DNA of 46,112 nt from Leptolyngbya sp. SIO4C1 (GCA_010671975.1 JAAHIA010000007.1:1-46112); one strand, 5' to 3'; shown: positions 1 through 46,112, numbered from the stretch's first letter. Numbers and translations are program-made. Notes: a model not told the origin generated them from the sequence alone.

Positions 1-403
1 TGAGGGTGATCTCCATCCCCTTCAGCTTAGTAAAGTCCGACAGGCCCATCACGCCTGGCTCATGGCGCAGCATAAACATCACTTCTGGCTCTGGGCCATG
101 CAGCGCTTTCCACTCCCGCACTCTTCGCTGTAATGTTCGCAACACCTGCGGGTACTGGCCCGGGTAGTGCTCTTGTAGGTACTCGAACAGCGTCGTTGGC
201 TTCAGTCGGGGCTCACGGCGCAGCATCGGCTCTAGCTCCTGCTCCCATACCTCGGCCAAGGGATCTCGACGCACAGCGGGTTCGATAACCCTGCCTCGAT
301 TGGTGCGGTGATGGCCGGCATCGATCCGTTGACCCGTGCGCTCTGATATTTCGGCAATCGTTGACGATGCCTGCTGAGTCAATCCCAGCTCTCTGGCGTT
401 CAT
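1..403 (-). CDS. Transposase N-terminal region (HTH plus linker). The frame stays open to the window start.
   Basis: Minus-strand translation from the ATG at 403 gives MNARELGLTQQASSTIAEISERTGQ...TLFEYLQEHYPGQYPQVLRTLQRRVREWKALHGPEPEVMFMLRHEPGVMGLSDFTKLKGMEITL. This pattern resembles the N-termini of IS21-like/rve-type transposases as I recall them. It is not in the ORF track because it runs off the edge. The region upstream (404..536) is in another frame. Confidence 0.5.
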   Translation of the reverse strand, partial: MNARELGLTQQASSTIAEISERTGQRIDAGHHRTNRGRVIEPAVRRDPLAEVWEQELEPMLRREPRLKPTTLFEYLQEHYPGQYPQVLRTLQRRVREWKALHGPEPEVMFMLRHEPGVMGLSDFTKLKGMEITL

Positions 404-703
404 ATAGGCTCGCTTTTGGTATAAGTGAATGGCTTGGGGCACAGGAATTAGCTCGCTTTTCTACTAGAGCTATCTGTGCCTTTTTCTTGGCCGGGTGATA
501 AACCACCTCAGCGGATCGCCGATTGACCTGTCTCATCCGGTTTGGACTTAACCCGACTACCGCTTTGGCGTCACCCGCCTACCTTCACTGTCGCGCAATA
601 GCGTTCTATGGGTTTGAGTGGTATCTGATTCTAGAACGCTGACTCCCATCTATGCCATCTGAAATTGCCTCATAGCAACCTTTTGACCTGCTCGACCCTC
701 TAG

Positions 704-720
704 TTTTGTCAGTCAATCAG
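704..720. repeat. Terminal inverted repeat of the junction-spanning IS (TTTTGTCAGTCAATCAG).
   Basis: Perfect 17/17 reverse-complement match to 45036..45052 (CTGATTGACTGACAAAA). Confidence 0.85.
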
Positions 721-729
721 GGCCAAAGG
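721..729. repeat. 9-bp target-site duplication GGCCAAAGG. The partner copy is 45027..45035.
   Basis: The same 9-mer in the same orientation abuts both IS termini. Confidence 0.8.
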
Positions 730-749
730 TTACCGTATCGTTTAACCAT
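721..749 (-). pseudogene. 5' end of the DGR reverse transcriptase gene (codons 1 to about 9), separated from the body by the IS.
   Basis: The minus strand reads ATG GTT AAA CGA TAC GGT AAC CTT TGG CC (MVKRYGNLW). Removing the IS and one duplication copy joins this in frame to [21 protein letters not shown]... at 45026 downward. The ATG lies 2 nt after the avd stop codon. Confidence 0.8.
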
Positions 750-751
750 AG

Positions 752-1108
752 TTAGGAATTGACGATTGCCTTTTGATGCTGCTGCCGCATCCAACCACCT
801 AGCTCCTGACCAATACTATCAATTAACTGACTGACATATTGGTATCGCCGTGCTGACATCAGCTCAAATTCAAATAACAGACGAGTTTGGTGACGTAGCA
901 GATCTAATCGGCCATTCAGGGCCTTCAACCTTGGCAGCTTGTCACTGCTGTATCGAGCAAGGATCAATCCTTCGAGCAAATCGTAAAGACCAGTGATAAC
1001 GCGATCGCCGAGCAGAAACTTATGCTCGCGGGGCAGCTTATTGAGAATAGGCACGTACCACTTCACCAAATCGTAGGTTTTTTGGACGATCGGCAACTCT
1101 CGCTTCAT
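752..1108 (-). CDS. avd: DGR accessory variability determinant (Avd), a four-helix-bundle protein.
   Basis: 118 aa. It shows the typical Avd / 23S-rRNA-IVS-protein pattern (MKRELPIVQKTYDLVKWYVPILNKLPREHKFLLGDRV...IDSIGQELGGWMRQ). It sits between a VR-bearing target gene and the RT start. Confidence 0.8.
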   Translation of the reverse strand: MKRELPIVQKTYDLVKWYVPILNKLPREHKFLLGDRVITGLYDLLEGLILARYSSDKLPRLKALNGRLDLLRHQTRLLFEFELMSARRYQYVSQLIDSIGQELGGWMRQQHQKAIVNS

Positions 1109-1156
1109 CTATCTCGCAGAAAAGAACTTTCGTACTATCGCCGATAGAGCGCCAAA

Positions 1157-1182
1157 GGGCAAGAGGGCAAAAGGGCAAAGGG
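1157..1182 (+). other. Conserved four-G-tract motif directly 3' of the target-1 stop codon.
   Basis: GGGCAAGAGGGCAAAAGGGCAAAGGG on the + strand. Near-identical copies lie at 9011..9036 and 42763..42788. It is absent next to the template repeat. Confidence 0.7.
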
Positions 1183-4100
1183 CTAGTCCCTCGCGAGCCC
1201 GCACACCACCCGAAAACCGGTGTCGTTGAACCTGAAGTCGGGCGCGTCCCCGAAGCGGAACGCCGACCGGCAGAACCCAGGATCGTCGTCCCAGGAACCG
1301 CCCCGCAGTACACGACTTTTTTTGCTCTTGTCAGAGGATATCCAGGCCGAACCATCTTCCGGGGCTCCTTCATAGGTATCATGCCAGTAATCTTCGCACC
1401 ATTCCCACACATTGCCGTGCATATCATATAGACCAAAGGCGTTAGCAGGGAAACGGCCAACCACAGTTGTCTTACCGCGATATTCCCCAATGGGACCCTC
1501 TCCAAAGGCAGACTGAGCACCATAGTTTGCTAAGTCTGCGGCAATGGTTTCACCAAAGTGGAACGGAGTTGTGGTGCCCGCACGGCAGGCATATTCCCAC
1601 TCAGCTTCGGTGGGGAGTCGATAGTCTTTGCCCGTCTTGGCGGAGAGACGTCGACAAAATTCTTGCGCATCCTCCCAACTCACTTGCTCAACAGGAAGAT
1701 GGTTTCCCTCAAAGTTTGATGGGTCAGGATCTAAATTTCGTTTCGACCCCAAATCTGACTGATTGGCCCCGTGCTCAATGGCCGTCCGAAAGTTCCTCTT
1801 TTTGACTGGTATACCTAAAGCATCAGACAGCACAGACCATAACTTAGTACCAGCATCTTTCAAAGAGCTGGCTTGATATGGCACTTCCGATGCCATGCTC
1901 TGGTATGTCTGCTGGTTCCAGGATCCTTCAAGAACAATCCTTTCAATATCTCGGAGTCCTTCCGCCCGAATCGAGCGGACAGCTAAATCAGCCGCTTGAA
2001 GGGCTTCCTCAAAGGTTTGTATGGCTTTCTGGCTGGCTGCTGTTGCGATTGCTCGCCACTGGGCCTGAGTAACGGGATAGCGACTCATATAAAACGGTTG
2101 CAGCGTCACTTCGTGCTGAGGACGCTCATCGTCAGTGCTCCCTGATTCTTCCTCCGGTGCTCCCATCATGAAGGTGCCGCCAGGGATAGCCACCATCTCC
2201 AAGTTCAGATTATCGTCTGTATCCGTATCCTCTCCGAGGGACTCGATATACCCCCAAGCCTCTGCTTGACGGCGACGGATTACCCATTCCTCTGATTCGC
2301 GATCGCGCTCTAAGGTGGCCGTCTCAAACTCAAAAGCGTGTTTGAGCAGAGTAATGATGGTCGGCGATTTAAAATCAAACGGCTGCAGCGGTGGAAAGTT
2401 GAGAAACTCGGCCACTTCGTAATCAACCGTGTGGAGCGGAAAGTTATCTTCGGTAGTCTGCTGGGGCTGTCGTCGTCGCTCCGCAGGCTGCACCACGGTG
2501 GCATATCGTTGGGCCAAGGCGGCATGAGGTCCTCCCAGGCGTTGCAAGACATCAAGGCCCACCGCAGCCAACGGTAAGGCTCCCTCGCCCAGGGCATCGC
2601 CAGTCGCTTCATAGGCTGCTAAAAAAGCCTCAAAACTCTTAAGCGTATTCCCTGCTCTGTCTCTGATCAGTTGAGAGAGCCGATCTAACACTTCCAGAGG
2701 GCGGGAGATCGGCACACTATCGAGTAGCAAGTATCGAACTCGCTGGGACTGATCACCGGGATCATCATCGCCAAAAAACTGGTAGCGGCATTGCCCTTCT
2801 TCCTCCTCGTCACACCGCTGAAGCAACCCGCTAAGGAGCACCTCAGCAACATGCTCTTGCCGCGCCTCTGGCACGAATTCATCCCGCAGCAGGTCAATAA
2901 CCGGCAGGCTCACTGGAGTTGCCGCCATGTATTCTGCTAACTGCTGTGCCATTTCAGAAGCCGCAGACCGAAACAAGGCTACCCGTTGTCGAGCGGTCCG
3001 AGATCGTACCGGAGCAGTTGATTTTGCTTGATATTCCTGCGCAATTTGACGCACCGATTTAAGCTCAAACACCCGACCGGGAGTCAGCGTTCCACCACTA
3101 CCTGCAATGACCCGTGCCCACCGATGCATCGCATGAGGTTCGAGCGTCACAACAGGAACGGTCAGCAGGCGTTGCTCACCATTTGGCGTCTGACCATTGG
3201 CGGGAGTTTCATCAGCTTCATCCCACTGATCCCAGACTTCCAGATTAGGCAGCCCTTCAACTTCCAGGCGAGAACTTGGTAAGCCTGAACCCGTCGTACC
3301 CAATCGGACAATATGACCATTGCTGAGAGCCGTCCGAGTCCATAATCGTTCGGGGAACAGTTGAACAATAGAAACCGGCTGTGCTTCCGCCCAGGCCCAA
3401 AGCGTTTCGTGAATGAGGCCTCGCCACCACAGAGCCGAGGTGCAATCTGTTAGCAGTAGGATCATTCTCCGACTACTGGGATCGAGTAGCTCGCGAGGGC
3501 TATGGGGTCGCTGATACTGACAGGCTTCAGGAGGCTCTCGCCAGCGGGGAAAGAGCATGAGATCTCTGGGGCTAGCTGTTTTTAGGTCAGGCACCGATAA
3601 TCGCCAGGTGCGAATAGTTCTAAAAGCACCTTGATACTCCACTAAGTGTTGCAATTCAGCGATCGCCCGCTCCCACACTACCGTTGTTTTGGAATCTTCT
3701 ACGACCAGTTCCAGATCTAGCCACCGCTCTGGCTGAGCCTGAACTACCGGCACCCAGAGCCGAGTTTCCGCAATTTGGGTAACGGTCGCTTCTTCATCTA
3801 GTTCCTGACGGATACGGGAAGGCACTTTGCGCATCAGGGGTCGGAGCGATCGCGCCAGATCCAGCCGAGTACGCAAGGCTGGCGCAGCCGGTACCGGAAA
3901 CGGGGTTCCCGGAGGTGGCTCCTCTTCCTCTTCTTCTGTCACTGAGGAAGGTTGTGATGGTTCGTCACGGCGATCGTCAATGTAGAGATTAGCGGTTGGC
4001 GTGTCACTGGCAGTAGCGGTACCCTCGTCTACTGTTTTAAGGGGCTTGGGCTCTGCCCCTGGGTGAGGTTCAGAAATCCCATCTGAACGCGCAGATCGAT

Positions 4101-4233
4101 CTAGCTCAATAAATTGAGCTAGCCAAAACATATCGGCCAAGTCAACCGCATCGAAGTCGAGGCCGAGCTGCTGCCTCAGCTTTTGCGCTGATTGTCCGAT
4201 AGTTGGTCTTCGCTGCTGCTCAGATGCTTCCAC
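1183..4233 (-). CDS. vWA-type protein of the MoxR/protease system with a C-terminal FGE (C-type-lectin fold) domain. DGR target 1.
   Basis: 1016 aa. The N-terminus (LRQQLGLDFDAVDLADMFWLAQ) resembles the SAV_2336-type N-terminal domain found with MoxR ATPases. A central vWA-like region follows. The C-terminus has FGE motifs (RPQHEVTLQPFYMSRYPVTQAQW, RLPTEAEWEYACRAG, GLYDMHGNVWEWCED, RVLRGGSW...[11 protein letters not shown]). The gene overlaps the upstream MoxR gene by 58 nt. Confidence 0.8.
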   Translation of the reverse strand: MEASEQQRRPTIGQSAQKLRQQLGLDFDAVDLADMFWLAQFIELDRSARSDGISEPHPGAEPKPLKTVDEGTATASDTPTANLYIDDRRDEPSQPSSVTEEEEEEPPPGTPFPVPAAPALRTRLDLARSLRPLMRKVPSRIRQELDEEATVTQIAETRLWVPVVQAQPERWLDLELVVEDSKTTVVWERAIAELQHLVEYQGAFRTIRTWRLSVPDLKTASPRDLMLFPRWREPPEACQYQRPHSPRELLDPSSRRMILLLTDCTSALWWRGLIHETLWAWAEAQPVSIVQLFPERLWTRTALSNGHIVRLGTTGSGLPSSRLEVEGLPNLEVWDQWDEADETPANGQTPNGEQRLLTVPVVTLEPHAMHRWARVIAGSGGTLTPGRVFELKSVRQIAQEYQAKSTAPVRSRTARQRVALFRSAASEMAQQLAEYMAATPVSLPVIDLLRDEFVPEARQEHVAEVLLSGLLQRCDEEEEGQCRYQFFGDDDPGDQSQRVRYLLLDSVPISRPLEVLDRLSQLIRDRAGNTLKSFEAFLAAYEATGDALGEGALPLAAVGLDVLQRLGGPHAALAQRYATVVQPAERRRQPQQTTEDNFPLHTVDYEVAEFLNFPPLQPFDFKSPTIITLLKHAFEFETATLERDRESEEWVIRRRQAEAWGYIESLGEDTDTDDNLNLEMVAIPGGTFMMGAPEEESGSTDDERPQHEVTLQPFYMSRYPVTQAQWRAIATAASQKAIQTFEEALQAADLAVRSIRAEGLRDIERIVLEGSWNQQTYQSMASEVPYQASSLKDAGTKLWSVLSDALGIPVKKRNFRTAIEHGANQSDLGSKRNLDPDPSNFEGNHLPVEQVSWEDAQEFCRRLSAKTGKDYRLPTEAEWEYACRAGTTTPFHFGETIAADLANYGAQSAFGEGPIGEYRGKTTVVGRFPANAFGLYDMHGNVWEWCEDYWHDTYEGAPEDGSAWISSDKSKKSRVLRGGSWDDDPGFCRSAFRFGDAPDFRFNDTGFRVVCGLARD
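1190..1309 (-). repeat. DGR variable repeat 1 (VR1).
   Basis: 120-bp alignment to the TR at 43832..43951. I count 17 differences by hand, all at + strand T (sense-strand A) of the TR. Confidence 0.9.
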
Positions 4234-5396
4234 AGGCGGTCAATCAAGTCTCCTGGCTCACTGACTTCGGTATTGATATTAGGCTTACGCTCGCGGGTAA
4301 TCAAATAGATCGCATTCAAAAGCTGATCAGTCGCCAGATTACCTTTGCTGAAGTTCTTGTCGCGTTTACCCACAAACCGTTTAACTAAATCATTGATCTG
4401 CTTCTCAGCCCCAGCAATTAAGGCTTCCCCATTCTCTTCCTGACGGAGGTGAGCCTTCACAATCTCGGTCAGCCGCGTTTCGTCTGGCTCCCGCATGGTT
4501 AAGCGAATACAGCGACGCAAAAACGGGGGTGGAAAATCGCGCTCACCGTTACTGGTCAGAATCATGAGCGGAAACTCGGTGCAAGCAATTCGGCCTTTCT
4601 CTATCTTGGTTTTGCCGTTGACCACAACTGGTTTGTCATCGGTTGCATGATCATTTACGTCTGACGCAATTACCACTGCATCATCGTCTGTCACTGATTG
4701 TTTGTTGAACGTAAATTCTGTATCGTCTTTGTAAGCCGTGCGGACTTCGACCTCAGCCCTAACGTCTTCAATCCGCACCAATTCAGGAATCTCAAACACC
4801 CCTTCCTCAAAGACGTAGAGCAAATCATTAGGCAGGTCAATATCGCTCTTATCGATTTCATCCACAATCAGGATGCGGGGTTTTTTAGAGGGCAGAAGAG
4901 CAGTACCCAAAGGCCCTAGACGAATGTATTTGCCCATGTTGTCAAAGCGGTTTTCGCCACTGCGTTCCTTTTCCGTAGAGTCTTGAAGGCGAGCGATCGC
5001 ATCGTAAAGATATAAACCGTCTTTCAGCGTCGTTCTGGTGGTAATGGGCCAGTACAGCACCTCACCCAGATCTGGCTCCCGGGCAATAGCATAGGCCAAC
5101 GACGTTTTGCCGGTGCCCGGTTTCCCCGTCACGAGCAACGGTCGCCGCAGATATAATGCCGCATTGACTAATTCGATCTCATTGGGCTCAGCCTGAAAGG
5201 TAGCCCCTCGCTCTTGCTTACGGCGATCCGCACGCCGCCAGGTCGGGGGAGCAGGAAGCGCCGCCAGGGGAGGCGTATCACCATTATCGGCAGGAGGCGC
5301 ACCAGTGCCCTTAAAGATGGGCTGGAAGATATCCCGCTGCTTCGCTGGCTCGTCACTCATCGTTTCGTCATTCCTCTCAGCATGCCTCTTGATCAA
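4176..5396 (-). CDS. MoxR-like AAA+ ATPase.
   Basis: 406 aa. Walker A is LLVTGKPGTGKTSLAYAIA and Walker B is ILIVDEIDK. It overlaps both neighbouring genes. Confidence 0.8.
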   Translation of the reverse strand: MIKRHAERNDETMSDEPAKQRDIFQPIFKGTGAPPADNGDTPPLAALPAPPTWRRADRRKQERGATFQAEPNEIELVNAALYLRRPLLVTGKPGTGKTSLAYAIAREPDLGEVLYWPITTRTTLKDGLYLYDAIARLQDSTEKERSGENRFDNMGKYIRLGPLGTALLPSKKPRILIVDEIDKSDIDLPNDLLYVFEEGVFEIPELVRIEDVRAEVEVRTAYKDDTEFTFNKQSVTDDDAVVIASDVNDHATDDKPVVVNGKTKIEKGRIACTEFPLMILTSNGERDFPPPFLRRCIRLTMREPDETRLTEIVKAHLRQEENGEALIAGAEKQINDLVKRFVGKRDKNFSKGNLATDQLLNAIYLITRERKPNINTEVSEPGDLIDRLWKHLSSSEDQLSDNQRKS

Positions 5397-7167
5397 ACGG
5401 CTCCCATGTGGGTGGGATGACTTTGAAATCTTCCCATACCAAGCTTAGATGGTAGCCCACATGAGTCTTGTCTTCACAATCGAGGGTTTCAGAACGCTCT
5501 TCAAAAACCCGTTTCGGCAAATCAATCACTGCACAGTCTAAGAGGTGCTCTAGATCCTGGCATTGAGCATCTTGCCGCGACCACAACGCCACCGGTAGGC
5601 CAACTTTTTTGGCTAAAAACTCAAACACATCTTCAACGCGATCGCTGGCAAGATTTTCCAAAATCGCCAGCTCAGCAGAGCGCAACTGCCTGAGTAAACG
5701 ACCTTTGTTGCTGCAATCTGAACGCACCAAAGCATCGCGAGCCGAAGTTTGGTGCTGCTGCTCTAGACTTTCCCACTTTTGCTGCCAACGGGTGTAGTGC
5801 TGCCTGCCAGTGGGAGATTGACTTAAATCTGTTCGCATCACCAATCTATACTGGTTCCCCAGAGTCAGGCCATCCTGAGTTTCACGCGCATCCAGATCGC
5901 AGCCTAAAAGACGTCGGGCAACGAAACAGTGCATCATTGGATTCTCTAAGGCTGATTCGGCCTCAAGCCACCTCTCCAGGAAAAGCGGCAACTCAACAAA
6001 AGGAACCACTTCATCTTTGAGCCGGGGCAGTGGTGGTTCCAGAGGGTCATAGAGATCGCGATCGCCAATCACCCACAGCCAAATTTTGACATTGGCCGTA
6101 TCTTGCTCATCGGGTTTAATCTGTACGATGAGATGCTCAGGGGCATAGGACGAGGGCAGTTGACGATCCTGACGCGCTTGATTAGCTCTGACATACAGCC
6201 GATCGAAATCAAACCGACGAAATCGCACCCAATTCTCTAATTCCTGTCGCAGGATCTTGGGTAAGCCATCCATTACAGCTAGAAACACCGCAAATTGTGT
6301 CAAGCGATCTACATCGCGCTCTGCTTGCTGCCAGCCCCGATTAGACAGCTGTGTGAGGTACTGCAAGCGCTCCAAGATAGGATCACTACTTGAGCGATTG
6401 CCGTCATCGCACAGCCAAAATGCCAGCTCAACCGCATTTCGCACCCGACTCTCAGCCTCGCTCAGCCCTTGCTCAATGAGGTCATATAGGCTGCGGGCAA
6501 ACAGGTCTTGCAGAATCGGACTGAGCTGATCTTCGGGAATAGCATAGGCTTTGCTCCTCTGCTCATCATTTTGCGGCACCCAAGCCGTGGCAATCATCCC
6601 CACTACACAGTTACGGACATGATTCCAAACCGGAGCACCGCTGAATCCCGACTCAATCGTGTCGTCCTGCGGGGCATCTTTTTTGTGAAACTGGAAACGC
6701 CCGCCTACGGCATTGGCTTTGGGCCTATAGGCATCGGAGCGATCGCCGCTCTCTTGAGCGAAGCCATAGACCGAATGCTCTTCATTCTTAATCTCTTCGC
6801 AAGAACAACGCAGGATAGGAATTGGCTTGGAACGATCTGGAGCAGGTGTGAGTAACTTTAAGGCAGCAACATCGCCTCTGTTTAAGTCATAGGGGAGCCA
6901 AGCCACCACCTGAGCTGGAATGTCATATTCATTGGGCAGAAAATCAAGGGTGACAGTTCCTTCAGGCGGTTGTTGATACTCCGCAAAGTCATCTTCATTG
7001 ACGCCCATTGCTTGCAGCACAACATGGGCGCAGGTCAATACATAACCAGGGGCAACCAAAAAACCTGTCCCCACTACGCTCTTCTGGCCCGTTTCCTGAT
7101 TTTGAAAAAAGATGCGGGCGATCGCGTGTTCGTAATCTTCGCGGCTAAGTTCTACTTGTGCTGCCAC
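5377..7167 (-). CDS. Trypsin-like serine protease with a long C-terminal helical domain (VMAP-C-like).
   Basis: 596 aa with a GTG start. The catalytic triad context is VLTCAHVV (His), GDVAALKL (Asp) and GFSGAPVWN (Ser). The roughly 380-aa C-terminal extension is typical of vWA-MoxR-associated proteins as I recall them. Confidence 0.75.
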   Translation of the reverse strand: MAAQVELSREDYEHAIARIFFQNQETGQKSVVGTGFLVAPGYVLTCAHVVLQAMGVNEDDFAEYQQPPEGTVTLDFLPNEYDIPAQVVAWLPYDLNRGDVAALKLLTPAPDRSKPIPILRCSCEEIKNEEHSVYGFAQESGDRSDAYRPKANAVGGRFQFHKKDAPQDDTIESGFSGAPVWNHVRNCVVGMIATAWVPQNDEQRSKAYAIPEDQLSPILQDLFARSLYDLIEQGLSEAESRVRNAVELAFWLCDDGNRSSSDPILERLQYLTQLSNRGWQQAERDVDRLTQFAVFLAVMDGLPKILRQELENWVRFRRFDFDRLYVRANQARQDRQLPSSYAPEHLIVQIKPDEQDTANVKIWLWVIGDRDLYDPLEPPLPRLKDEVVPFVELPLFLERWLEAESALENPMMHCFVARRLLGCDLDARETQDGLTLGNQYRLVMRTDLSQSPTGRQHYTRWQQKWESLEQQHQTSARDALVRSDCSNKGRLLRQLRSAELAILENLASDRVEDVFEFLAKKVGLPVALWSRQDAQCQDLEHLLDCAVIDLPKRVFEERSETLDCEDKTHVGYHLSLVWEDFKVIPPTWEPFDQEAC

Positions 7168-7225
7168 TTCAACGTAATCTCATAGGTTGCCTCACCACCC
7201 ACTTTTGTAACCACTGCACCCACTT
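7152..7225 (-). pseudogene. 3' part of a small trypsin-co-occurring (Trypco2 / CU044_2847-like) gene interrupted by IS256.
   Basis: The minus strand reads ...AVVTKVGGEATYEITLKWQHK*. It joins in frame to 8622..8880 once the IS and one copy of the 9-bp duplication are removed. Confidence 0.6.
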
Positions 7226-8621
7226 GAGCTATAACCAAAAGTGGTGTACGAGGGAGGCACAAAAAAAGGCGTATCCTTCTGGAAGAGAAAAAGACCAGAC
7301 AAAGGAATACACCATGACTCAAGATAATGTGATCGCATTCAAAACACCAGCATCCGACGAGACGTTCAGTGATGCCCTGAGCGACTTGGTGCGACAAGGC
7401 GCCCGGCAAATCATTGCTCAGGCGGTAGAAGCAGAGCTCAATGAGTTTCTAGCCCACTATCAAGGACTCAGCGACGAGCAGGGCCGCCGAGGGGTAGTGC
7501 GCAATGGCTATCTGCCCGAGCGGACAATAACGACTGGGGTTGGTGAGGTAACGGTACAAGTGCCCAAGGTGCGAGACCGCACCGGTAGCGGCATCAAGTT
7601 CAACTCAAAGCTTTTGCCGCCGTATCTCAAGCGAGCCAAAAGTGTGGAGGAAGTGCTGCCGTGGCTGTATCTCAAAGGCATCTCAGCGGGTGATTTTAGC
7701 GAAGCGCTCGCTTCACTGCTTGGACCTCAGGCCAAAGGGCTCTCGGCCTCAACGATAGGACGACTGAAGGCGAAGTGGCAGCAAGAGCATCAGCAGTGGC
7801 AAAAACGCTCGCTTTTGGACAAGCGCTATGTCTATGTCTGGGCAGACGGCATCTACTTCAACATCCGCGATGATGAACGGCAGTGCATACTGGTGCTCAT
7901 TGGGGTCACCGATAGCGGTCACAAAGAACTGCTGGGCATCGAAGCAGGCTACCGAGAGTCAGCGTTGAGCTGGCAGTCGTTGCTGTTGCGACTCAAAGAC
8001 CAAGGACTGGCGCATGATCCACAGTTAGCCATCGGAGACGGTGCTTTGGGCTTTTGGAAAGCCCTGTCGCAGGTGTTTCCCACAACCAAAGTGCAGCGCT
8101 GCTGGGTGCATAAGACGGCGAATGTGCTCAACAAACTGCCCAAGCGTCAGCAACCCAAAGCCAAGTCAGCCTTGTGGGAAATCTATCGAGCTGAGACCAA
8201 GAGCGAAGCTAATCAAGCCTTCAACCGCTTTGTTCAGACTTATCAAGCCAAGTATCCAGAAGCGGCTGATTGTTTGGCTAAGGACCGAGATGCCCTGCTG
8301 GCGTTTTACGACTTTCCGGCGCAGCATTGGAAGCATATTCGCTCGACCAATCCAATTGAATCGACCTTTGCCACAGTTCGATTGCGCACTGATAAGACCC
8401 GAGGCTGCGTCTCCCAAGCGACGATCCTATCGCTAGTGTTCAAGCTAGTTGAGAGTGCTCAGCAGCGCTGGTTGCGGATTCGGGGCTTTCAGCATCTAGC
8501 CGAGGTGATTGAAGGTGTCTCATTCAAAGATGGTATTCGAGCTGAGGAGACTGATACTGATTTAGACCCGTTGCAGAAGGTCGCCTGATGATGCTAGATA
8601 CACCACATTTGACAATAACTC
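7226..8621 (+). mobile_element. IS256-family insertion sequence.
   Basis: Imperfect terminal inverted repeats: GAGCTATAACCAAAAGTGGTGTA at 7226.. against the reverse complement of the right end, GAGTTATTGTCAAATGTGGTGTA. A 9-bp direct duplication CACCCACTT lies at 7217..7225 and 8622..8630. Confidence 0.8.
7314..8588 (+). CDS. IS256-family (mutator-type) transposase.
   Basis: The N-terminus MTQDNVIAFKTP...ARQIIAQAVEAELNEFL is typical of IS256 transposases. Other landmarks are WADGIYFNIR, IGDGALGFWKAL, QRCWVHKTANVLNKLPK and STNPIESTFATVRLR. The ORF-track start at 7158 is an upstream extension across the IS end. Confidence 0.85.
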   Translation: MTQDNVIAFKTPASDETFSDALSDLVRQGARQIIAQAVEAELNEFLAHYQGLSDEQGRRGVVRNGYLPERTITTGVGEVTVQVPKVRDRTGSGIKFNSKLLPPYLKRAKSVEEVLPWLYLKGISAGDFSEALASLLGPQAKGLSASTIGRLKAKWQQEHQQWQKRSLLDKRYVYVWADGIYFNIRDDERQCILVLIGVTDSGHKELLGIEAGYRESALSWQSLLLRLKDQGLAHDPQLAIGDGALGFWKALSQVFPTTKVQRCWVHKTANVLNKLPKRQQPKAKSALWEIYRAETKSEANQAFNRFVQTYQAKYPEAADCLAKDRDALLAFYDFPAQHWKHIRSTNPIESTFATVRLRTDKTRGCVSQATILSLVFKLVESAQQRWLRIRGFQHLAEVIEGVSFKDGIRAEETDTDLDPLQKVA

Positions 8622-8880
8622 CACCCACTTCGCCGCTGAGCTTGACACTAAATTTCACTTCCACCTCGTCAGCGGGCTGAGTCATGGCATCCACGCGATC
8701 ACGAATGCTCTCGACCATCGGTTTCAAGTTATCAAGGGCCTGGTCAAACGTTTGCTTCGCTTGAGCCGCAATTTCCCCTGGGCGCTTGGAAACAGGCTTC
8801 ACTGCATCCGACTGCACATCCTCAACCTCGATCAGCACCGACTGACCGTTGCCCACATCAAATTCAACAAGTCTTGTCAT
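8622..8880 (-). pseudogene. 5' part of the small trypsin-co-occurring gene interrupted by IS256.
   Basis: MTRLVEFDVGNGQSVLIEVEDV...EVEVKFSVKLSGEVG, then the IS end. The pattern matches small proteins found upstream of trypsin/MoxR/vWA operons (recall-level). Confidence 0.55.
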
Positions 8881-9010
8881 CACACCTTTCCCAGTCAACA
8901 CCCGAGATAAAAACCATATCAGCCCCGGTCATCACTACAAGCTTATTCGCTCCATTTCGGCATACATCCAAAGAAACATTAAGTACAAATGAACTATAAC
9001 AGTTACCAAA

Positions 9011-9036
9011 GGGCAAGAGGGCAAAAGGGCAAAGGG
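9011..9036 (+). other. Conserved four-G-tract motif directly 3' of the target-2 stop codon.
   Basis: GGGCAAGAGGGCAAAAGGGCAAAGGG, identical to 1157..1182. Confidence 0.7.
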
Positions 9037-9825
9037 CTAGTCTCTCGCGAGCCCGCACACCACCCGAAAACCGGAGTCGCTGACCCCGAGGCCGGGCGCG
9101 CCCCTGAGGCGGTCCGCCGACCGGCAGAACTCAGGATTGAGGTTCCAGGAACCGCCCCGCAGTACACGACTATTTTCGCTCTCATCAGAGGATATCCAGG
9201 CGGTGCCATCTTCCGGGGCTCCTGCGTAGGTCTTATGCCAGTGGTCTTCGCACCATTCCCATACGTTGCTGTGCATGTCATGAAGGCCCCAACGGTTGGC
9301 CGGATAATGTCCTACTTCCGACGTCTGGTTCATCGTGCCACGATAATTGGCCAGCTCTGCCGTCAGCCTGTCGCCAAAATGATAGGCCGTTTGCGTTCCC
9401 GCACGACAGGCATATTCCCACTGGGCCTCACTGGGTAAGCTATACGCTTTGCCAGTTTTGGCAGCGAGCCGCCGACAGAACTCTGTAGCGTCTTCCCAAC
9501 TCACCTGCTCTACCGGCAAGACATCTCCCTTAAAGCGAGAAGGGGCCGGATCAAGATCTTTGCCGATACGGTCATAGCCTGCAACGATACGCCACTGGAC
9601 CTGAGTCACTGGATAGCGCCCCATCAGAAACGATGGCACCGTGACTCGATGCTGAGGTTGCTCACTACTATGGCTATTAGGCTCATCTTTCAAAGTCCCC
9701 ATCCTAAATTCCCCGGCGGGGATGAGCATCAGCGTCAGAGAAACATCCTCACTCAGAGCTTCGGTGTAAGCCTTGTTCAGACACCGATAGCGATGCAGAG
9801 TCAGAGCCTTGGAAACCGTCGCCAT
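9037..9825 (-). CDS. Stand-alone FGE / C-type-lectin-fold protein. DGR target 2.
   Basis: 262 aa. Motifs include QPQHRVTVPSFLMGRYPVTQVQW, SLPSEAQWEYACRAG, GLHDMHSNVWEWCED and RVLRGGSW...[11 protein letters not shown]. It lies directly upstream of the protease operon on the same strand. Confidence 0.85.
   Translation of the reverse strand: MATVSKALTLHRYRCLNKAYTEALSEDVSLTLMLIPAGEFRMGTLKDEPNSHSSEQPQHRVTVPSFLMGRYPVTQVQWRIVAGYDRIGKDLDPAPSRFKGDVLPVEQVSWEDATEFCRRLAAKTGKAYSLPSEAQWEYACRAGTQTAYHFGDRLTAELANYRGTMNQTSEVGHYPANRWGLHDMHSNVWEWCEDHWHKTYAGAPEDGTAWISSDESENSRVLRGGSWNLNPEFCRSADRLRGAPGLGVSDSGFRVVCGLARD
9044..9163 (-). repeat. DGR variable repeat 2 (VR2).
   Basis: 120-bp alignment to the TR. I count 18 differences by hand, all at TR adenine positions. 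Confidence 0.9.
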
Positions 9826-10018
9826 ACGTATTCCTCTTACTGCATTAGCATTAGGTTTGTCATCAACCTCCAGCTCTGCTGGAGGCTTGAAAGAAGCCGC
9901 TCAAAGCGGCAACACAGGTGAGAGGCAAACATATCGATCTCTTTGAGCTTAAGGGATTTATATCCTGTGAGCCTTTTATATTCTGTAATTCCGCACCTTG
10001 TGGGACTGTCAAACTTCA

Positions 10019-10795
10019 CTAGTCTCCCAGCAGAGCTGGGGGTTTATGCCGATTAATAAATTCCAGCACTTTGGACACTGGCTGCCGCTCCACCTCCACC
10101 ATCCGCTTCACCGTAGGCACAATGGCAACCGGCAAATACACCGTCCCCCGACTATCCGGCTCATCCCAGCGATAGTAGTAGCTCACCGTCGGATGCACCC
10201 GCTTACGATTGCCCACCCGCTCCTCAATCCAACCAGACGCAAAGCCCTTCGGCACATGCCGCCTGCACTTCCCACCTCCCCCAGAACAAGACGATTGAAC
10301 CCGCACCGGCGCAGCCTCCACCACCGGCTCAACCCCCTGTTCTGGGGGAGACAGCAACTTGCCTTCAGTGGGGGCCTCTCCACTAAACGGCACTGTAAAG
10401 GGTGCTATACGCCCCGATAACAGCGATAACTGCAGTCCTTCGTCACTTGGGTCATCTATACGCTGCTGGCCGTGATATTCGGCAATAAGCCGCTTCTGAG
10501 TCGGTCGAAAGCGCGAGTCATAGCGCAGGTGGCAAAGGCTGCACAGCGCTTTCAGGTTGACGCGATCGCAATTTTGCGGGTCTTGGTCAAGGTGCGCCAC
10601 CGTCAGAACGTAGTGCCCCCGCTTACGCAGTAGATCAATTGGGTTCCAACCCATGCGGTCGCAAAACTGCTCCCAGCTCTCACCGGCGCGGCGACAGCGC
10701 CGCCCACAGGCTTGACAAGTCCAGTTCGCCTCAGTGCGAAGGCGTAACGAGATATCGTCCCAATCATCGGGATAGCGCGATCGCTTAGAAGGCAT
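10019..10795 (-). CDS. HNH endonuclease domain protein.
   Basis: The N-terminal CQACGRRC...LTVAHLDQDPQNC...NLKALCSLCHLRYD matches the HNH/zinc-finger pattern. Confidence 0.7.
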   Translation of the reverse strand: MPSKRSRYPDDWDDISLRLRTEANWTCQACGRRCRRAGESWEQFCDRMGWNPIDLLRKRGHYVLTVAHLDQDPQNCDRVNLKALCSLCHLRYDSRFRPTQKRLIAEYHGQQRIDDPSDEGLQLSLLSGRIAPFTVPFSGEAPTEGKLLSPPEQGVEPVVEAAPVRVQSSCSGGGGKCRRHVPKGFASGWIEERVGNRKRVHPTVSYYYRWDEPDSRGTVYLPVAIVPTVKRMVEVERQPVSKVLEFINRHKPPALLGD

Positions 10796-11825
10796 GATTC
10801 AAGCTCCCTATCCACGCACTTAGCTCATCCCAAGACCGCTGCCGCAGCTGCTCGAACGGAATCCACCGCTCATTTTTTAGACAGACTGTCAGCACGCCTT
10901 CTCGCATCTCGGAAGCAACCACTAAGCTACGCCTGCGGGCTTCATTAAACCAGGCCCCAAAGCCCGTTGGTGCAGTATGACCTTTCTCGGGCTGCCAGCT
11001 ATCTTCAATCGCTCGCTGTAGAAAGCGGGTCGGATGCTTCACAGTCGCTCGCTTTTCCTCTAGACAGGCGATCGCTGTGGGTAACCGCTCCGGCCAGAGA
11101 GCAATCACTCGCTGCAAGTTGCGATCGCGCAGGTTCACACCTATTTTCTCTGCTCGCTGTAAAATCGGCGGTGTATATTTCCCTTCGCGATTTTCCTGAG
11201 CTTCTAAGCTCTGATTTGAAACACTAGGCCGATCGTTTGAAAAATCTTCACTGTTAAGTAGCTCTGGGTCTTGAGCTTGTTTAAAACTACATACGTCTTT
11301 ACACACACTTTGTGGTGGTGAGTTGAAAAAAGGTTGTAGAAGATCTGTAGCGTCACAGAACGTTTGCTCAGCTTCGGTTTCAGGCTCGACCTGTCCCAAA
11401 TCTGAGACTGACTGTCCCGCCAGTGAGACACCTTGTCCCAGATTTGGGACAGGTATTCCCGCCAGTGAGACACCTGTCTCGCCAGCGGGACATACATTTG
11501 TACTATCCAAATCGGCCTCACTAGAACCATCTGGAATGCACAGCTCGACAGCACCAATGATATTTTCTTGGAGCTTGCCTTCAGCAATCAGGGCAGCTTT
11601 AGCCCGGTAGAAGGTGCTACGCGGAATTTCCCACTGGCGGCAAAATTCTGTAACGTTATCGATGCGCCACCACCAGCCCACGCGACGCTGGGCCAGTATT
11701 AGGTGATAGAGGTAGCCTTTCGGCGTATAGTCACCCTGCTTCCACAGCTCAAAAACTTCCAAAGGGGTAAGACGAAGATGGGGTTCTTTAACCCGGTCTT
11801 GAGATGCATGTGTCATAATTAACAA
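10785..11825 (-). CDS. Winged-helix/HTH protein, a possible plasmid or phage replication or regulatory protein.
   Basis: 346 aa. The N-terminus has an HTH-like segment (NVTEFCRQWEIPRSTFYRAKAALIAEGKL). An internal 42-bp (14-aa) tandem repeat encodes GVSLAG...LGQ at about 11415..11475. The function is not recognised. Confidence 0.35.
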   Translation of the reverse strand: MLIMTHASQDRVKEPHLRLTPLEVFELWKQGDYTPKGYLYHLILAQRRVGWWWRIDNVTEFCRQWEIPRSTFYRAKAALIAEGKLQENIIGAVELCIPDGSSEADLDSTNVCPAGETGVSLAGIPVPNLGQGVSLAGQSVSDLGQVEPETEAEQTFCDATDLLQPFFNSPPQSVCKDVCSFKQAQDPELLNSEDFSNDRPSVSNQSLEAQENREGKYTPPILQRAEKIGVNLRDRNLQRVIALWPERLPTAIACLEEKRATVKHPTRFLQRAIEDSWQPEKGHTAPTGFGAWFNEARRRSLVVASEMREGVLTVCLKNERWIPFEQLRQRSWDELSAWIGSLNHAF

Positions 11826-13730: not shown

Positions 13731-14036
13731 TTGCCCACTCAAGATAAAACAATGAAGCAGCTAGAACTTAACCCCAAGCCCGACATATTAAACGCCTGTG
13801 CCTGGGCACGGCTACCCCATCGCGGCGCTGGTATCGTGCTAGCAGTACCAAAACCGCTACCGCTAGGGCTAGCTCCGTGGCTGCGATCGCAAGGCTGGCA
13901 ACTAGCAGGTTACGCAGAAGATCGAGGACAAGCAGCGGTCTGGCTCATCGGTGGTGTAGAAGCTGACCTACTCGGCTGGCTACCTCGGCCACGCAGCGAA
14001 GGCAGTCGCACAGCGGGGAATCTGCTGCCCTGGTAG
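13731..14036 (+). CDS. Hypothetical protein. Coding status uncertain.
   Basis: A 101-aa ORF (alternative ATG at 13752). Its 3' end runs into the roughly 560-bp repeat R1. No family recognised. Confidence 0.25.
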   Translation: MPTQDKTMKQLELNPKPDILNACAWARLPHRGAGIVLAVPKPLPLGLAPWLRSQGWQLAGYAEDRGQAAVWLIGGVEADLLGWLPRPRSEGSRTAGNLLPW

Positions 14037-14580
14037 GCTTGCCCTAGTCGGACAGCGGACGGGCGAAACCGCCCGAGCACCGCACGCCGCACGGCCACAT
14101 CGAACCACGGTAGGCAGGGTCACGCTGTCAAGGCCGTAGCGCAGCGGAGAGCGAAGCGTGCCTTGATCAGTGGGGCCGCCGTGGTAGCCTTTCTTGGCAG
14201 TGGCACGAAGGGCGCAGGGCGGCCAGCAAAAAAACGGGCAACCCCTTGATCGTGCGGGAAGGGTGGCTTAGTGGCTCATTAAAAAAGCGCCCAACCATAC
14301 AATGCGGAGCGCAGCGGAGCCAACATAAAAAGGGCAACCCTAGCTGATCAAGCCACTAAGCCACCCTGGACGCACAAACAATAAGCGCCCAACCACTCAA
14401 TCTTTCGCCCTTTGTCTTTCAGCATCGGGTAGTTCGCGCTTCGGGATCGAGAGCGTTTATGTGGGGTGCGATCGTGAAGCGGATATGATGCCAAACAAAC
14501 TAAACGGACACTCACATGTTGGCTGTAAGTGTGCTGTCTTGATTGTGTGGAGTGACGCGCCATTAGCATGACTGGAGCGA
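14019..14580 (+). repeat. Copy 1 (R1) of a roughly 560-bp non-coding direct repeat.
   Basis: Aligns with 22287..22845. I estimate identity above 90 percent over the first 450 bp or so, decaying after that. It has internal periodic motifs and a 16-nt inverted repeat (14262..14277 and 14351..14366, approximate). Confidence 0.8.
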
Positions 14581-16683: not shown

Positions 16684-17439
16684 ATGAATATGTCTGCCTT
16701 GAGCCAAAACATTTTTATGAAATTAGGAATCGTAAGCTCCCTAATTTTAAGTAGCAGCAATGCAGTAGCCGCAAATCAAATCCAAGTGTGGACACCTAAT
16801 TTTGGTTACGAAGCTGGAAGTTGGCGCGTCAGCCAGCACATTCGTACCTTAGCCGATGTGAACGGTGACGGGAAAGACGATATCGTTGGTTTCGGCAATT
16901 CTGGGACGTTTGTCTCCTTATCAACGGGGTCTGGGTTTACTTCTCCTCAGAAGTGGGTCAATGACTTTGGTCGTAATGAGGACGCTGGTTCTTGGAATTT
17001 AGACCAGCACATTCGTACCTTAGCCGATGTGAACGGTGACGGGAAAGACGATATCGTTGGTTTCGGCAATTCTGGGACGTTTGTCTCCTTATCAACGGGG
17101 TCTAGGTTTACTTCTCCTCAGAAGTGGGTCAATAACTTTGGTCGTAATGAGGACGCTGGTTCTTGGAATTTAGACCAGCACATTCGTACCTTAGCTGATG
17201 TGAACGGTGATGGGAAAGACGACATCGTTGGTTTCGGTAATGCCGGGACGTTTATCTCCCTATCGACAGGCACTGAGTTTGTTTCACCTCAGATGTGGAT
17301 CAATAACTTTGGTCGCAATGAGGACGCTGGTTCTTGGAATTTAGACCGGCACATTCGTACCTTAGCCGATGTGAACGGTGATGGGAAAGACGACATCGTT
17401 GGTTTCGGCAATGCCGGAGTTTTTGTTACCACCAGATAA
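16684..17439 (+). CDS. Secreted FG-GAP/VCBS-like repeat protein.
   Basis: A signal-peptide-like N-terminus is followed by four 57-aa repeats containing ADVNGDGKDDIVGFGN. Confidence 0.7.
   Translation: MNMSALSQNIFMKLGIVSSLILSSSNAVAANQIQVWTPNFGYEAGSWRVSQHIRTLADVNGDGKDDIVGFGNSGTFVSLSTGSGFTSPQKWVNDFGRNEDAGSWNLDQHIRTLADVNGDGKDDIVGFGNSGTFVSLSTGSRFTSPQKWVNNFGRNEDAGSWNLDQHIRTLADVNGDGKDDIVGFGNAGTFISLSTGTEFVSPQMWINNFGRNEDAGSWNLDRHIRTLADVNGDGKDDIVGFGNAGVFVTTR
16834..17439 (+). repeat. Tandem 171-bp coding repeats (about 3.5 units).
   Basis: Units start at 16834, 17005, 17176 and 17347 and are nearly identical at the nucleotide level. Confidence 0.85.
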
Positions 17440-22255: not shown

Positions 22256-22286
22256 GCCGCAACAACATCCTTACCTCACAGCCAGA

Positions 22287-27056: not shown

Positions 27057-27320
27057 TATCCATTTTTCTAGAAGCTCAGTTATCAGGTCGCTGAAATCTC
27101 CGCTATGCCTGACCAGCTTAATCTTGACCTCCTCATTCAAAGCCTTCGGAATGTAGGCCCCGACCTGAATGTAATTAGGATCTGATCGCTTACCTGTCTT
27201 CTTACGTTTTTTCGAAGATGATGCAGTAGATTCTGCTGCCTTTTTCAGGTCTGGCTGCTGTTCGTACGACTCAGCCAGATTACTGAACATATCAGCCACA
27301 TCCTTTTTAACCTTAGCCAT
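27048..27320 (-). CDS. Small RHH centromere-binding protein (ParG-like, putative).
   Basis: 90 aa, overlapping the parA stop. The C-terminus YIPKALNEEVKIKLVRHSGDFSDLITELLEKWI is RHH-like. Confidence 0.5.
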   Translation of the reverse strand: MAKVKKDVADMFSNLAESYEQQPDLKKAAESTASSSKKRKKTGKRSDPNYIQVGAYIPKALNEEVKIKLVRHSGDFSDLITELLEKWIAD

Positions 27321-42788: not shown

Positions 42789-43664
<876 letters not shown>

Positions 43665-43970: not shown

Positions 43971-45035
43971 TCACTGTCTCGAAAACACGAGATCAGCAAA
44001 TAGCTTTTGGCGCAATCGCCAGGTGTCAGCATGGTCAAGATGGGCCAGCCAGCTTTGCATTGACCGATCCAACTCTTGAAACCCTATTTTACCGCTAGCA
44101 TAGTCAGCCTGCAGCTGTTTGAGTCGGCGTCTGGCTCGACGCAGGTTTTCGCTACGCACGCGGATACACACATCCTTTGAGCAGCCTTCACCTTTTGGCA
44201 GTATCCGAAATCCCAAAAAGTTAGCACCATGACGAGTCTCAAAGAGTTGGCTTTTGACAGGGTGGACCTTGAGCCGTAGCCCGACCAGGTAATCTTCCAG
44301 GGCAGTGCGGGCCTTAGCCAGAAATCCTTGATCGTCACTAAATAAGGCGAAGTCATCCACATATCGAACGTACTTTTTTACCTGGAGCTGCTCTTTCACA
44401 AAGTGATCGAAGCCGTTGAGGTAAACATTAGCAAAGAACTGACTGGTAAGATTGCCAATCGGCAACCCCCGTCGCCGTTCTAACATCGTCAGCAAATCGT
44501 CTCCTGGAAATAGCTCATGGACTGGAATCTGCTCATTGCTGTGGTCAATGATGCAGTCAATCAGCCAAAGCGTATCCGGGCATTTAATCTTGCGCCGCAC
44601 GATCGCTTTGAGAATGGTCAGGTCAATGCTAGGAAATATTTTTGGATATCGCACTGCAGCACATAGGGCGTGGTGCGCATAAATTGAATGAGCCGCTGTA
44701 GCGCCCGGTGGGTGCCATAACCAATACGATTGGCATAGGAGTCATCAATAAAGGTGCGCTCGAAAATGGGCTGAATGATATTGCAAAGGGCATGGTGGAC
44801 GACACGATCGCGATAGGGAGCCGCAGAAATCATCCGTAGTTTAGGATCGTAGATTTCAAAGGTGGTATAGCCTCCAGGCTTATACGTTTTATGAGTAAGC
44901 TCGGCCTGAAGAGCTAACAGCGCTGACTCCAGACTGTAGTTGAATCGCAAGACACTTGCCTGCATCCGTTTGCCCCGCTGGGCATTGCGAGCCGCCAGGA
45001 GCAGGTTCTCAAAGTGAATGACCTGAGGCCAAAGG
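43971..45035 (-). pseudogene. DGR reverse transcriptase body, with its 5' end removed by the IS and a 1-nt frameshift.
   Basis: [21 protein letters not shown]..., [41 protein letters not shown] (DGR-type motif) and [11 protein letters not shown]. The frame breaks at about 44632..44633 (QKYF then PSID needs one more C). Confidence 0.85.
45027..45035. repeat. 9-bp target-site duplication GGCCAAAGG (partner copy 721..729).
   Basis: See 721..729. Confidence 0.8.
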
Positions 45036-45052
45036 CTGATTGACTGACAAAA
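45036..45052. repeat. Terminal inverted repeat of the junction-spanning IS (CTGATTGACTGACAAAA).
   Basis: Reverse complement of 704..720. Confidence 0.85.
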
Positions 45053-45053
45053 G

Positions 45054-46112
45054 TTATTCAGGCGCGTATGAGTACGTTAGTACTCTGAACTCCAGACGAT
45101 AGGCTCGTTTCTCGTGTTGTTTGCGCGAGGCCATCGCCGGGTCAGGGTCACGATTGGTTGTGAAGCTAACCTTGCGGACAATGCGCCAGCCTTGCACAGC
45201 AGCAGCCTTGAGCCAGTCCCAGCCAATGCGAAAGTAGCTGCTACCGCGAAACCAGTGGGCATCGACCCAGCGACGCTGATGCTCAGCGACAACCTGAGTG
45301 CCCTGAGCGGTGACAAACAGGGTTGCCAGCGCCAGAATGAACCAGAGTCTAGACAGCGCACAGACCGAACGAATCTGCGACTTTTGCAGATTCCACCCGC
45401 TGGATTGGTCGTCTCGGAAATTCTGCTCAATGTCGAACCTCAAAGCGTACTCACAGAAGGTCTGCAGCGTGGTCGGCTGATCGCTGACAATCGCCCAGAA
45501 CTCGCCGTTGAGGTTGTTGCGCCCGAAGGCGATGTGGACCGGGCCGTAGCATTGCCCTTTGTGGATGCGAACGTTGTGAAAGCACAGCGCTTCCCCACGC
45601 TTGAAGTGAATGTCCTTGAGCTGTGACCATCCCTTGCCAGCACGCCATATCCAGGTGTTCTTCTTCAACCGGATACGATAGTGCCAGCCCCACTGCTGGC
45701 TGAGGGCTCGCATCAAGTCTGTGTGCACAAAGCCTCGGTCAGCCAAGAGCACTACCTTGAGACCCACTGGCAAGCACTCGGCGGCTTGGTGCAAGAGCGC
45801 TTCGTACTCAGCAAAAGCCACCGCCGCGCTGCTATGGTGCAGCACCCGCCAAGCCACTGGCAAGGCACGACCGCGATGGACCACCGCCACCCGTATCAGG
45901 CAGTACTCGTCCCAGAATAGTGAAGTATCCAAGCTCAAGAAGAGGCACTCGTCTTGCCATTCGCTGATGGCAGCCTGTATCAGCGGCTTGTATAGCTTGT
46001 GGACATTGATGCGAGCATTGTTGAGCCAGCGCTGTACCCGCCTTTGCTTGCTTTGAGCGTAGCGACCTCGACTGGGTAGATAGGGCACCCAGCGAGTGAG
46101 GTTCACTTCTCC
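45054..46112 (-). CDS. IS4-superfamily DDE transposase, catalytic part. The frame stays open to the window end.
   Basis: [30 protein letters not shown] and [16 protein letters not shown] give D, D and E/K landmarks of IS4-like (DDE_Tnp_1) enzymes. [16 protein letters not shown] resembles cyanobacterial IS4-family N-terminal regions. Confidence 0.75.

Follow-up and report, generated by a model that had tools for sequence, protein, structure and literature searches.

Gene content and organization of the locus

Prokaryotic conflict systems built around a protease and an AAA+ ATPase can be coupled to a diversity-generating retroelement (DGR), and one such locus lies on a 46,112-nt contig of Leptolyngbya sp. 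SIO4C1 (JAAHIA010000007.1), referred to here, at its full length, as the window. Open reading frames (ORFs) were listed across the window and scanned with Pfam and NCBIfam hidden Markov models (HMMs). On the minus strand, the order is FGE target 2, Trypco1, a trypsin–VMAP-M1–VMAP-C protein, a MoxR ATPase, a 1016-aa vWA–FGE protein, bAvd, a reverse transcriptase (RT), a template repeat (TR) and FGE target 3 (Table 1). The locus is very likely a cyanobacterial VMAP-ternary vWA-MoxR conflict system with an embedded DGR. Such systems were defined by Kaur, Burroughs, Iyer and Aravind (eLife 2020; PMC7159879) by the order VMAP, MoxR, vWA, with Trypco1 or Trypco2 beside trypsin-type VMAPs. Hence, the Leptolyngbya locus is not a discovery but an additional example of an already described architecture, damaged by insertion sequences (ISs).

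The original prediction for this DNA, made from the sequence alone, had listed these elements on the minus strand and assigned them to a trypsin/MoxR AAA+/vWA conflict-type operon. ORFs and HMM scans place every element at, or a few bases from, its predicted position, and the domain searches proposed at the time matched Trypco1, Trypsin_2, VMAP-M1, VMAP-C, AAA_5, SAV_2336_NTERM and FGE-sulfatase. Domains and gene order together support the class assignment, as a trypsin-VMAP/MoxR/vWA ternary operon. VMAP, MoxR and vWA genes follow one another in that order on the minus strand, an order kept in 60 of 62 related loci, and Trypco1 lies beside the trypsin-type VMAP, cut short in this copy by an IS.

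Three related loci are referred to throughout. The closest relative, L001, comes from a JGI metagenome (85% protein identity) and carries FGE, Trypco1, VMAP, MoxR, vWA–FGE, Avd, RT and FGE genes. L002 lies on the chromosome of a cultured strain, Phormidium yuhuli AB48 (CP098611.1, about 764.9-773.7 kb; 59% identity), with Trypco1, trypsin-VMAP, MoxR, vWA–FGE, Avd, RT and FGE genes. The third is L003.

Table 1. Coordinates of the conflict-system genes, retroelement parts and insertion sequences in the window
Feature	Coordinates	Strand	Details
FGE target 2, 262 aa	9037..9825	-	Free-standing FGE/C-type lectin DGR target; Pfam FGE-sulfatase E=3e-50
Variable repeat 2 (VR2)	9044-9163	-	In FGE target 2; 18 mismatches to TR, all at TR adenines
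Trypco1 5' part	8622..8880	-	Codons 1 to about 86; cut by IS
IS256/Mutator-family IS, complete	7226..8621	+	Pfam Transposase_mut E=1e-75; within Trypco1
Trypco1 3' remnant	7152..7225	-	Second target-duplication copy, last 21 codons and stop
VMAP protein, 596 aa	5377..7167	-	Pfam Trypsin_2 E=3e-12 (N-terminal), VMAP-M1 E=1.6e-6, VMAP-C E=1.2e-24
MoxR-like AAA+ ATPase, 394 aa	4176..5360	-	From ATG 5360 (mechanical ORF from TTG 5396); Pfam AAA_5 E=7.6e-7
vWA component, 1016 aa	1183..4233	-	NCBIfam SAV_2336_NTERM, residues 29-528, E=5e-119; Pfam FGE-sulfatase, residues 679-1010, E=5e-63
Variable repeat 1 (VR1)	1190-1309	-	In vWA component; 17 mismatches to TR, all at TR adenines
bAvd	752..1108	-	DGR accessory variability determinant; Pfam bAvd E=1.7e-19, 70.7 bits against a cutoff of 40
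DGR RT, first 10 codons	720..749	-	MVKRYGNLWP; ends in one 9-bp target-duplication copy (729-721); aligns to L001 RT start
IS4-like element, left end	1..719	-	Inverted repeat CTGATTGACTGACAAAA; holds start of nested IS21-like IstA gene
IS21-like IstA gene fragment	402..1	-	Nested in IS4-like element; runs off contig
IS4-like element, right part	45036..46112	-	DDE_Tnp_1 transposase, Pfam E=2e-9, incomplete at contig end; matching terminal inverted repeat
DGR RT, remainder	43971..45035	-	Coding resumes at about 45026; loss of 1 nt near 44636 shifts the frame
Template repeat (TR)	43832-43951	-	120 nt; 29 adenines; 11 AAC codons
FGE target 3, 291 aa	42789..43664	-	Free-standing FGE/C-type lectin DGR target; Pfam FGE-sulfatase E=3e-59
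Variable repeat 3 (VR3)	42796-42915	-	In FGE target 3; 13 mismatches to TR, all at TR adenines

The template and variable repeats

A repeat finder recovered one TR and three VRs in register. The VRs form the last ~40 codons of the FGE/C-type lectin domain in three genes, and the changes are concentrated at the 11 AAC codons of the TR. When the three VRs are pooled, adenines of the TR take 48 of 48 mismatches, although they make up only 29 of its 120 bases; the chance expectation for this outcome is about (29/120)^48, or roughly 1e-30. The 3' ends of VR and TR part immediately after CTCGCGAG, and the next ~38 nt downstream are common to the three targets. Judged from these repeats, the DGR has evidently rewritten the C-terminal FGE module of the 1016-aa protein. 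The two extra free-standing variable FGE proteins of the original prediction were also found, as FGE targets 2 and 3, and VR2 and VR3 are adenine-specific. A gene in the position equivalent to that of FGE target 2 is present in L001 and L003. The N-termini of FGE target 2, FGE target 3 and the vWA component, read by eye, have no obvious signal peptide, so the ligand would probably be intracellular.

The TR is identical to that of L001 (11386-11505) at 120 of 120 positions, although the surrounding genes share only about 77-84% nucleotide identity. This suggests either that the TR is very strongly constrained or that it was exchanged recently.

A broken reverse transcriptase

The retroelement was originally described as acting in the present. 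In this copy, the RT homolog is split by an IS4-like element that itself holds an IS21-like element, and it has also suffered a 1-nt deletion. RVT_1 is accordingly matched by Pfam in two ORFs (43971-44965, minus strand). The IS4-like element inserted after about codon 10 of the RT; it has 17-bp terminal inverted repeats (CTGATTGACTGACAAAA) and is flanked by a 9-bp target duplication, CCTTTGGCC (729-721 and 45035-45027). The nested IstA fragment shares 72% identity with ISAcma26-type elements, which are multicopy and precede an annotated IstB. The RT has 84% nucleotide identity to the intact RT of L001, with a single 1-nt gap (AAATA-TTTCC in the window, AAATACTTTCC in L001) that shifts the frame just ahead of the conserved PSID motif.

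What does this mean for the retroelement? Because the insertion and the frameshift break the RT, the earlier claim that the DGR diversifies the C-terminal module holds for VR1 as a target, but belongs in the past tense for this copy. The DGR is, as far as its sequence can tell, a remnant, with a dead diversifier. Since the RT is split and frameshifted, the three VRs would be frozen unless an RT acts on them in trans. The inactivation is probably recent because none of the 48 TR/VR mismatches lies off the adenines.

The protease, the ATPase and Trypco1

The predicted trypsin-like protease with a long C-terminal domain consists of Trypsin_2 followed by VMAP-M1 and VMAP-C, the last of which scores 88 bits against a cutoff of 27. 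Its catalytic triad, H48/D99/S176, is kept in at least 90% of 26 trypsin-type VMAP homologs. The MoxR ATPase has the Walker A motif GKPGTGKT and a Walker B motif at DE179-180. Thus, at the sequence level, both the protease triad and the Walker motifs are intact. The segment LPAPPTWRRA of the ATPase aligns to the LPxPPxWRxF consensus of 74 homologs; according to Kaur et al., an N-terminal LPxPPxWR-type motif is unique to the MoxRs of VMAP systems (PMC7159879). Of the two N-terminal motifs specific to such MoxRs, WxhapG and PsWRxa, the first has its W replaced in this copy. A PDB sequence search with the ATPase gave no relevant match.

The small trypsin-co-occurring gene that had been placed at 8880 and flagged as interrupted is Trypco1. 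The match covers 8524-8901 on the minus strand (Pfam E=7e-18; NCBIfam CU044_2847_fam), homologs support a start at 8880, and the gene is cut at about codon 86 by the IS256-family element. This element is bounded by imperfect ~24-bp terminal inverted repeats, and 9 bp of target sequence, AAGTGGGTG, are duplicated at its edges. With the element treated as a gap, L001 and the window align colinearly. Joining 8622..8880 to 7152-7216 gives back a Trypco1 ORF of 107 aa, as long as its counterparts in L001 and L002.

Adjacent genes were originally proposed to overlap by 16 to 58 nt and to form a single translationally coupled unit. The 58-nt MoxR/vWA overlap stands, and it recurs in L001 and L002. 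The 16-nt overlap between the Trypco1 stop and the VMAP start, also seen in L002, exists only in the gene as reconstructed before IS insertion. A 20-nt VMAP/MoxR overlap is probably not real because the conserved MoxR start is ATG 5360, where 58 of 74 homologs have the start methionine, and not TTG 5396. Because the opposite-strand IS splits the operon, it is no longer one coupled unit.

The probable vWA component

The 1016-aa protein begins with an N-terminal helical motif and an acidic disordered linker, followed by a vWA-like alpha/beta region (about residues 130-410), a helical extension (414-581) and an FGE/C-type lectin domain (about 630-1016). A full-length AlphaFold2 (AF2) model built from a 68-sequence alignment has a mean predicted local distance difference test score (pLDDT) of 76, with values of roughly 80-94 over most of residues 130-410. 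Residues 173-312 are modeled as a β-α-β-β-α-α-β-α-β-α-β unit of vWA-like topology. Among homologs of the N-terminal module, E179-x-S181-x-x-T184 is near-invariant after strand 1, and T-D263 is invariant after strand 4; vWA domains place the acidic residues of their metal ion-dependent adhesion site (MIDAS) at the ends of strands 1 and 4 (PMC7159879). A segment at 586-628, between the helical extension and the FGE domain, is disordered (pLDDT<50).

With the full-length AF2 model, the best 50 Foldseek matches listed are of the FGE fold only, and include FGE, PvdO and TvpA (2y3c, E=4e-12). A model of the N-terminal module alone, built from an 18-sequence alignment, is poor (pLDDT 54). Its top matches are NorD, from the NorQ/NorD MoxR-vWA pair, the vWA domain of CMG2 and the MIDAS of MDN1, all weak (E about 1e-2), with Foldseek probabilities of 0.9-0.97 for the top four and lower for MDN1. 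Taking model, conserved residues and these weak matches together, the N-terminal module likely holds a divergent vWA domain.

Two further features of this protein vary among relatives. First, its FGE domain contains a helical insert at residues ~723-830, annotated in precomputed Pfam data as PF26355 (HTH_VMAP-M9); the insert is found in only a subset of homologs and is modeled by AF2 with low confidence. Second, the acidic linker of the P. yuhuli protein is lengthened by about nine tandem 15-nt repeats encoding E-D-T-E-T (L002 10277-10456), and the window's vWA component has a poly-Glu run at the same site. The linker appears to be a hotspot of length variation.

Conservation of the locus

The survey covered 80 cyanobacterial genome loci encoding the N-terminal module, with RT and Avd sought in a 10-kb flank. 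MoxR lies upstream of the module in 60 of 62 loci, as does VMAP (60/62). An FGE domain is fused to the module in 42 of 51 loci. RT or Avd is present in the flank of 13 of 51 loci and in none of the nine that lack FGE, so the retroelement genes occur only where FGE is fused. Trypco1, found in 22 loci, co-occurs with trypsin-type VMAPs; trypsin was found in 23. All 80 loci are cyanobacterial, and the named genera are mostly filamentous or colonial. Other homologs of the N-terminal module end in GUN4, pentapeptide, AAA_35, DNA methylase or DO-GTPase domains, and highly variable C-terminal domains are typical of the vWA component (PMC7159879).

Loci that share the full order include L001, L002, L003 and Trichodesmium (L069), among others. 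The three VRs of L001 differ from their shared TR almost only at adenines, and the same is true in L002 and L003, which have their own TRs. A survey of this kind had been suggested as a check on whether the DGR and the MoxR operon belong together; with the order recurring in L001-L003 and across the 80 loci, their adjacency is not accidental.

There are also local departures from the common arrangement. In L001, avd (9870-10217) points the opposite way to the other cassette genes, whereas in the window and in L002 it runs in their direction. The MoxR gene of L001 is moreover split into two ORFs (5625-6380 and 6421-6807).

The replicon and other features of the window

Both ends of the contig fall within IS elements. 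A seamless circular junction was rejected, the two ends lying in different IS elements with no reading frame continuing over the join. The split RT, with matching inverted repeats and a target duplication bordering its two halves, instead implies a circular, plasmid-like replicon of 46 kb, the assembly of which was broken in a repeat. Other genes in the window, encoding ParA, a tyrosine recombinase, a PIN-domain protein, Uma2 and a LexA-like S24 peptidase, add to the plasmid-like look, and the host is a Leptolyngbya-like filamentous cyanobacterium. A megablast of 1183-7167 against PLSDB plasmids gave no match. PADLOC, which has no model for the VMAP system, returned only generic trypsin and AAA matches, and at gathering thresholds Rfam gave no match anywhere in the window.

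Two co-directional ORFs lie directly upstream of FGE target 2 (10019-11825). One is HNH-like (CxxC...HLDQD...CHLRYD), and the second holds a 42-nt tandem repeat at 11392-11475; neither has an HMM match. These ORFs and those at 40692-42251 have no counterpart beside the related loci, and for want of this conservation they were left out of the system.

Repeats are found elsewhere in the window. A ~490-bp stretch is duplicated at 14009-14500 and 22277-22766, 8.27 kb apart, with 84-95% identity. Most of it seems not to code for protein, and it consists of ~50-nt units with A-rich heads (AAAAA-GGGCAACC...). Candidate identities are an iteron, an origin or a mobile element. Degenerate 54-nt direct repeats at 28953-29328, in or overlapping an ORF at 28818-29342 and about 1 kb from ParA (27313-27909), may be partition or replication repeats. 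Three tandem 171-nt repeats with 85-93% identity (16810-17426) form part of a plus-strand gene (16684-17439) that encodes an FG-GAP repeat protein. Finally, two ~190-aa ORFs that have no Pfam match form a paralogous pair, with 81% nucleotide identity over 300 nt (18458-18757 and 26124-26423).

A possible mechanism and its alternatives

How might the system work? The variable lectin face of the vWA–FGE protein, perhaps together with the two small FGE proteins, would bind a molecule from an invader. A MIDAS-like site in the vWA domain would hold a peptide of a partner, and a MoxR hexamer would use ATP to remodel the vWA/VMAP complex. Remodeling would in turn release or activate the trypsin-like protease of VMAP, with Trypco1 as a cofactor or regulator. 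The outcome would be proteolysis, probably leading to abortive cell death that protects the filament. The idea that the DGR target is the sensor is a hypothesis already in print: for equivalent loci in Thiohalocapsa, Doré et al. (PNAS 2024; PMC10907252) proposed that a DGR-diversified vWA–CLec (C-type lectin) protein acts as a sensor that signals through MoxR to the VMAP protease, whereas Kaur et al. assign sensing to VMAP. Links between DGRs and vWA-MoxR systems, which the original prediction had mentioned as noted in the literature, are therefore real and were understated. Indeed, Kaur et al. found ~80% of cyanobacterial and gammaproteobacterial VMAP systems to be DGR-associated, with the vWA component fused to an FGS domain, and FGS domains to be almost exclusive to the cyanobacterial systems (PMC7159879).

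Several observations weigh against the assignment of the locus to this class, or against parts of it. First, the 1016-aa protein has no Pfam vWA match, nor do 18 homologs of the N-terminal module at E<=5; because this permissive scan gave no vWA family, the vWA call cannot rest on Pfam. What backs the original description of a vWA-type protein is SAV_2336_NTERM, the predicted topology and the weak Foldseek matches. Second, PDB sequence searches with the N-terminal module, using a single sequence and a profile, gave nothing relevant, and the vWA-type Foldseek matches are weak and come from the low-confidence model. Third, the first acidic residue of the MIDAS is Glu/Asp in an ExSxT context, as opposed to the canonical DxSxS. 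Fourth, the share of surveyed loci with RT or Avd within 10 kb (13/51) is below the ~80% in the literature, a figure that also counts TRs elsewhere in the genome. Fifth, the RT frameshift could be an assembly error rather than a real mutation. Sixth, no experimental study of any VMAP system was found in the literature searched.

The roles of sensor and effector could also be reversed. In the model of Kaur et al., VMAP is the sensor, and the hypervariable FGE module is not a trigger but a binder, or “effector,” which the protease sets free and which neutralizes invader molecules; this mechanism is given in PMC7159879 and summarized in PMC10907252. We consider it possible, but doubtful, for this locus. 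The vWA component bears interchangeable C-terminal “effector” domains in relatives, and cleavage might take place in the long segment at 586-628, which is predicted to be disordered and precedes the FGE domain. No release is needed, however, for the two free-standing FGE targets, and VMAP-M and VMAP-C here are without evident ligand-binding variability. Moreover, in every characterized DGR known to us (Mtd, TvpA), a non-enzymatic lectin fold under anticipatory mutagenesis acts like a receptor.

An unlikely reading is that the system does not serve immunity at all and is instead a tunable signaling, self/non-self or kin-recognition device of filamentous cyanobacteria, in which the lectin would recognize a ligand from the cell itself or its surroundings, and the protease would act on a regulatory substrate. 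The restriction of all 80 related loci to cyanobacteria, with the named genera mostly filamentous or colonial, and a probably intracellular ligand, given the lack of obvious signal peptides, would fit such a role. Vallota-Eastman et al. in 2020 are said to frame cyanobacterial DGR targets as regulatory. Several hallmarks of conflict systems argue otherwise, namely rapid domain swapping on the vWA component, association with trypsin or caspase effectors, the plasmid-like context with toxin-antitoxin-type genes and the occurrence of paralogous copies within one genome. As for the DGR and the MoxR operon being neighbors by accident only, a view to which the 38 of 51 surveyed loci without RT or Avd within 10 kb might lend itself, there is hardly any chance of this: VR1 sits inside the gene for the vWA component, the full order recurs in relatives, RT and Avd lie only beside FGE-fused versions, and synteny together with the adenine-specific VR1/TR differences effectively refutes it.

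Two further ideas can be considered. It is conceivable, though improbable, that the two independent IS hits, in the RT and in Trypco1, are not random decay and were instead selected because they silence an anticipatory receptor system that is costly or auto-reactive and travels on a mobile plasmid. In that event, DGR-diversified VMAP systems would carry a risk of autoimmunity, and arming or restraining the protease would require Trypco1. As a smaller possibility, the two free-standing variable FGE proteins may be soluble co-receptors that dock on the vWA MIDAS site.

Among the bacterial analogs proposed so far, DGR-coupled vWA-MoxR-protease systems come closest to an anticipatory receptor repertoire linked to a protease for cell death. 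The window, as a damaged example, has little value of its own, but the survey points to intact, tractable homologs in culturable strains. The best candidate for deciding between sensor and effector is the P. yuhuli AB48 locus.

Comparison with known systems

Pairing of a MoxR-class AAA+ ATPase with a vWA/MIDAS protein is also seen in NorQ/NorD, RavA/ViaA and CbbQ/CbbO, and NorD is the top structural match to the N-terminal module. Those pairs, however, mature metabolic enzymes, and they have no VMAP, protease, variable lectin or DGR. The diversified module, in turn, resembles TvpA of Treponema denticola and Mtd of Bordetella phage BPP-1, which share the FGE-type C-type lectin fold, a VR at the extreme C-terminus and adenine mutagenesis at AAC codons. 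TvpA is a surface lipoprotein and Mtd is a phage tail-fiber protein, whereas the window joins the fold to a vWA/MoxR/protease machine that is probably cytoplasmic.

Closer parallels are found in DGR loci 4, 5 and 7 of Thiohalocapsa PB-PSB1 and their relatives (PMC10907252). There, too, a DGR target combining vWA and a variable CLec domain lies beside MoxR, trypsin-VMAP and Trypco1, several targets, including a short CLec-only one, are served by one TR, and the proposed logic runs from sensor through MoxR to protease. The Thiohalocapsa loci differ in their gammaproteobacterial host and in having some targets with tandem CLec or additional NACHT/phosphodiesterase domains. In addition, the Thiohalocapsa DGRs are active, with VR heterogeneity measured, while the RT in the window is disrupted.

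The closest match of all is to the cyanobacterial DGR-associated VMAP-ternary systems of Kaur et al., from which the locus shows no architectural difference. Gene order, the trypsin-VMAP with Trypco1, VMAP-M1/VMAP-C and the MoxR PsWR motif are alike, as is the predicted vWA component, with its acidic linker, helical extension and C-terminal FGS domain targeted by an adjacent DGR. Both are restricted to multicellular cyanobacteria. Particular to the window are the ISs in the RT and Trypco1, the RT frameshift and the plasmid-like contig, together with the two flanking free-standing FGE targets and the helical HTH_VMAP-M9 insert in the FGE domain.

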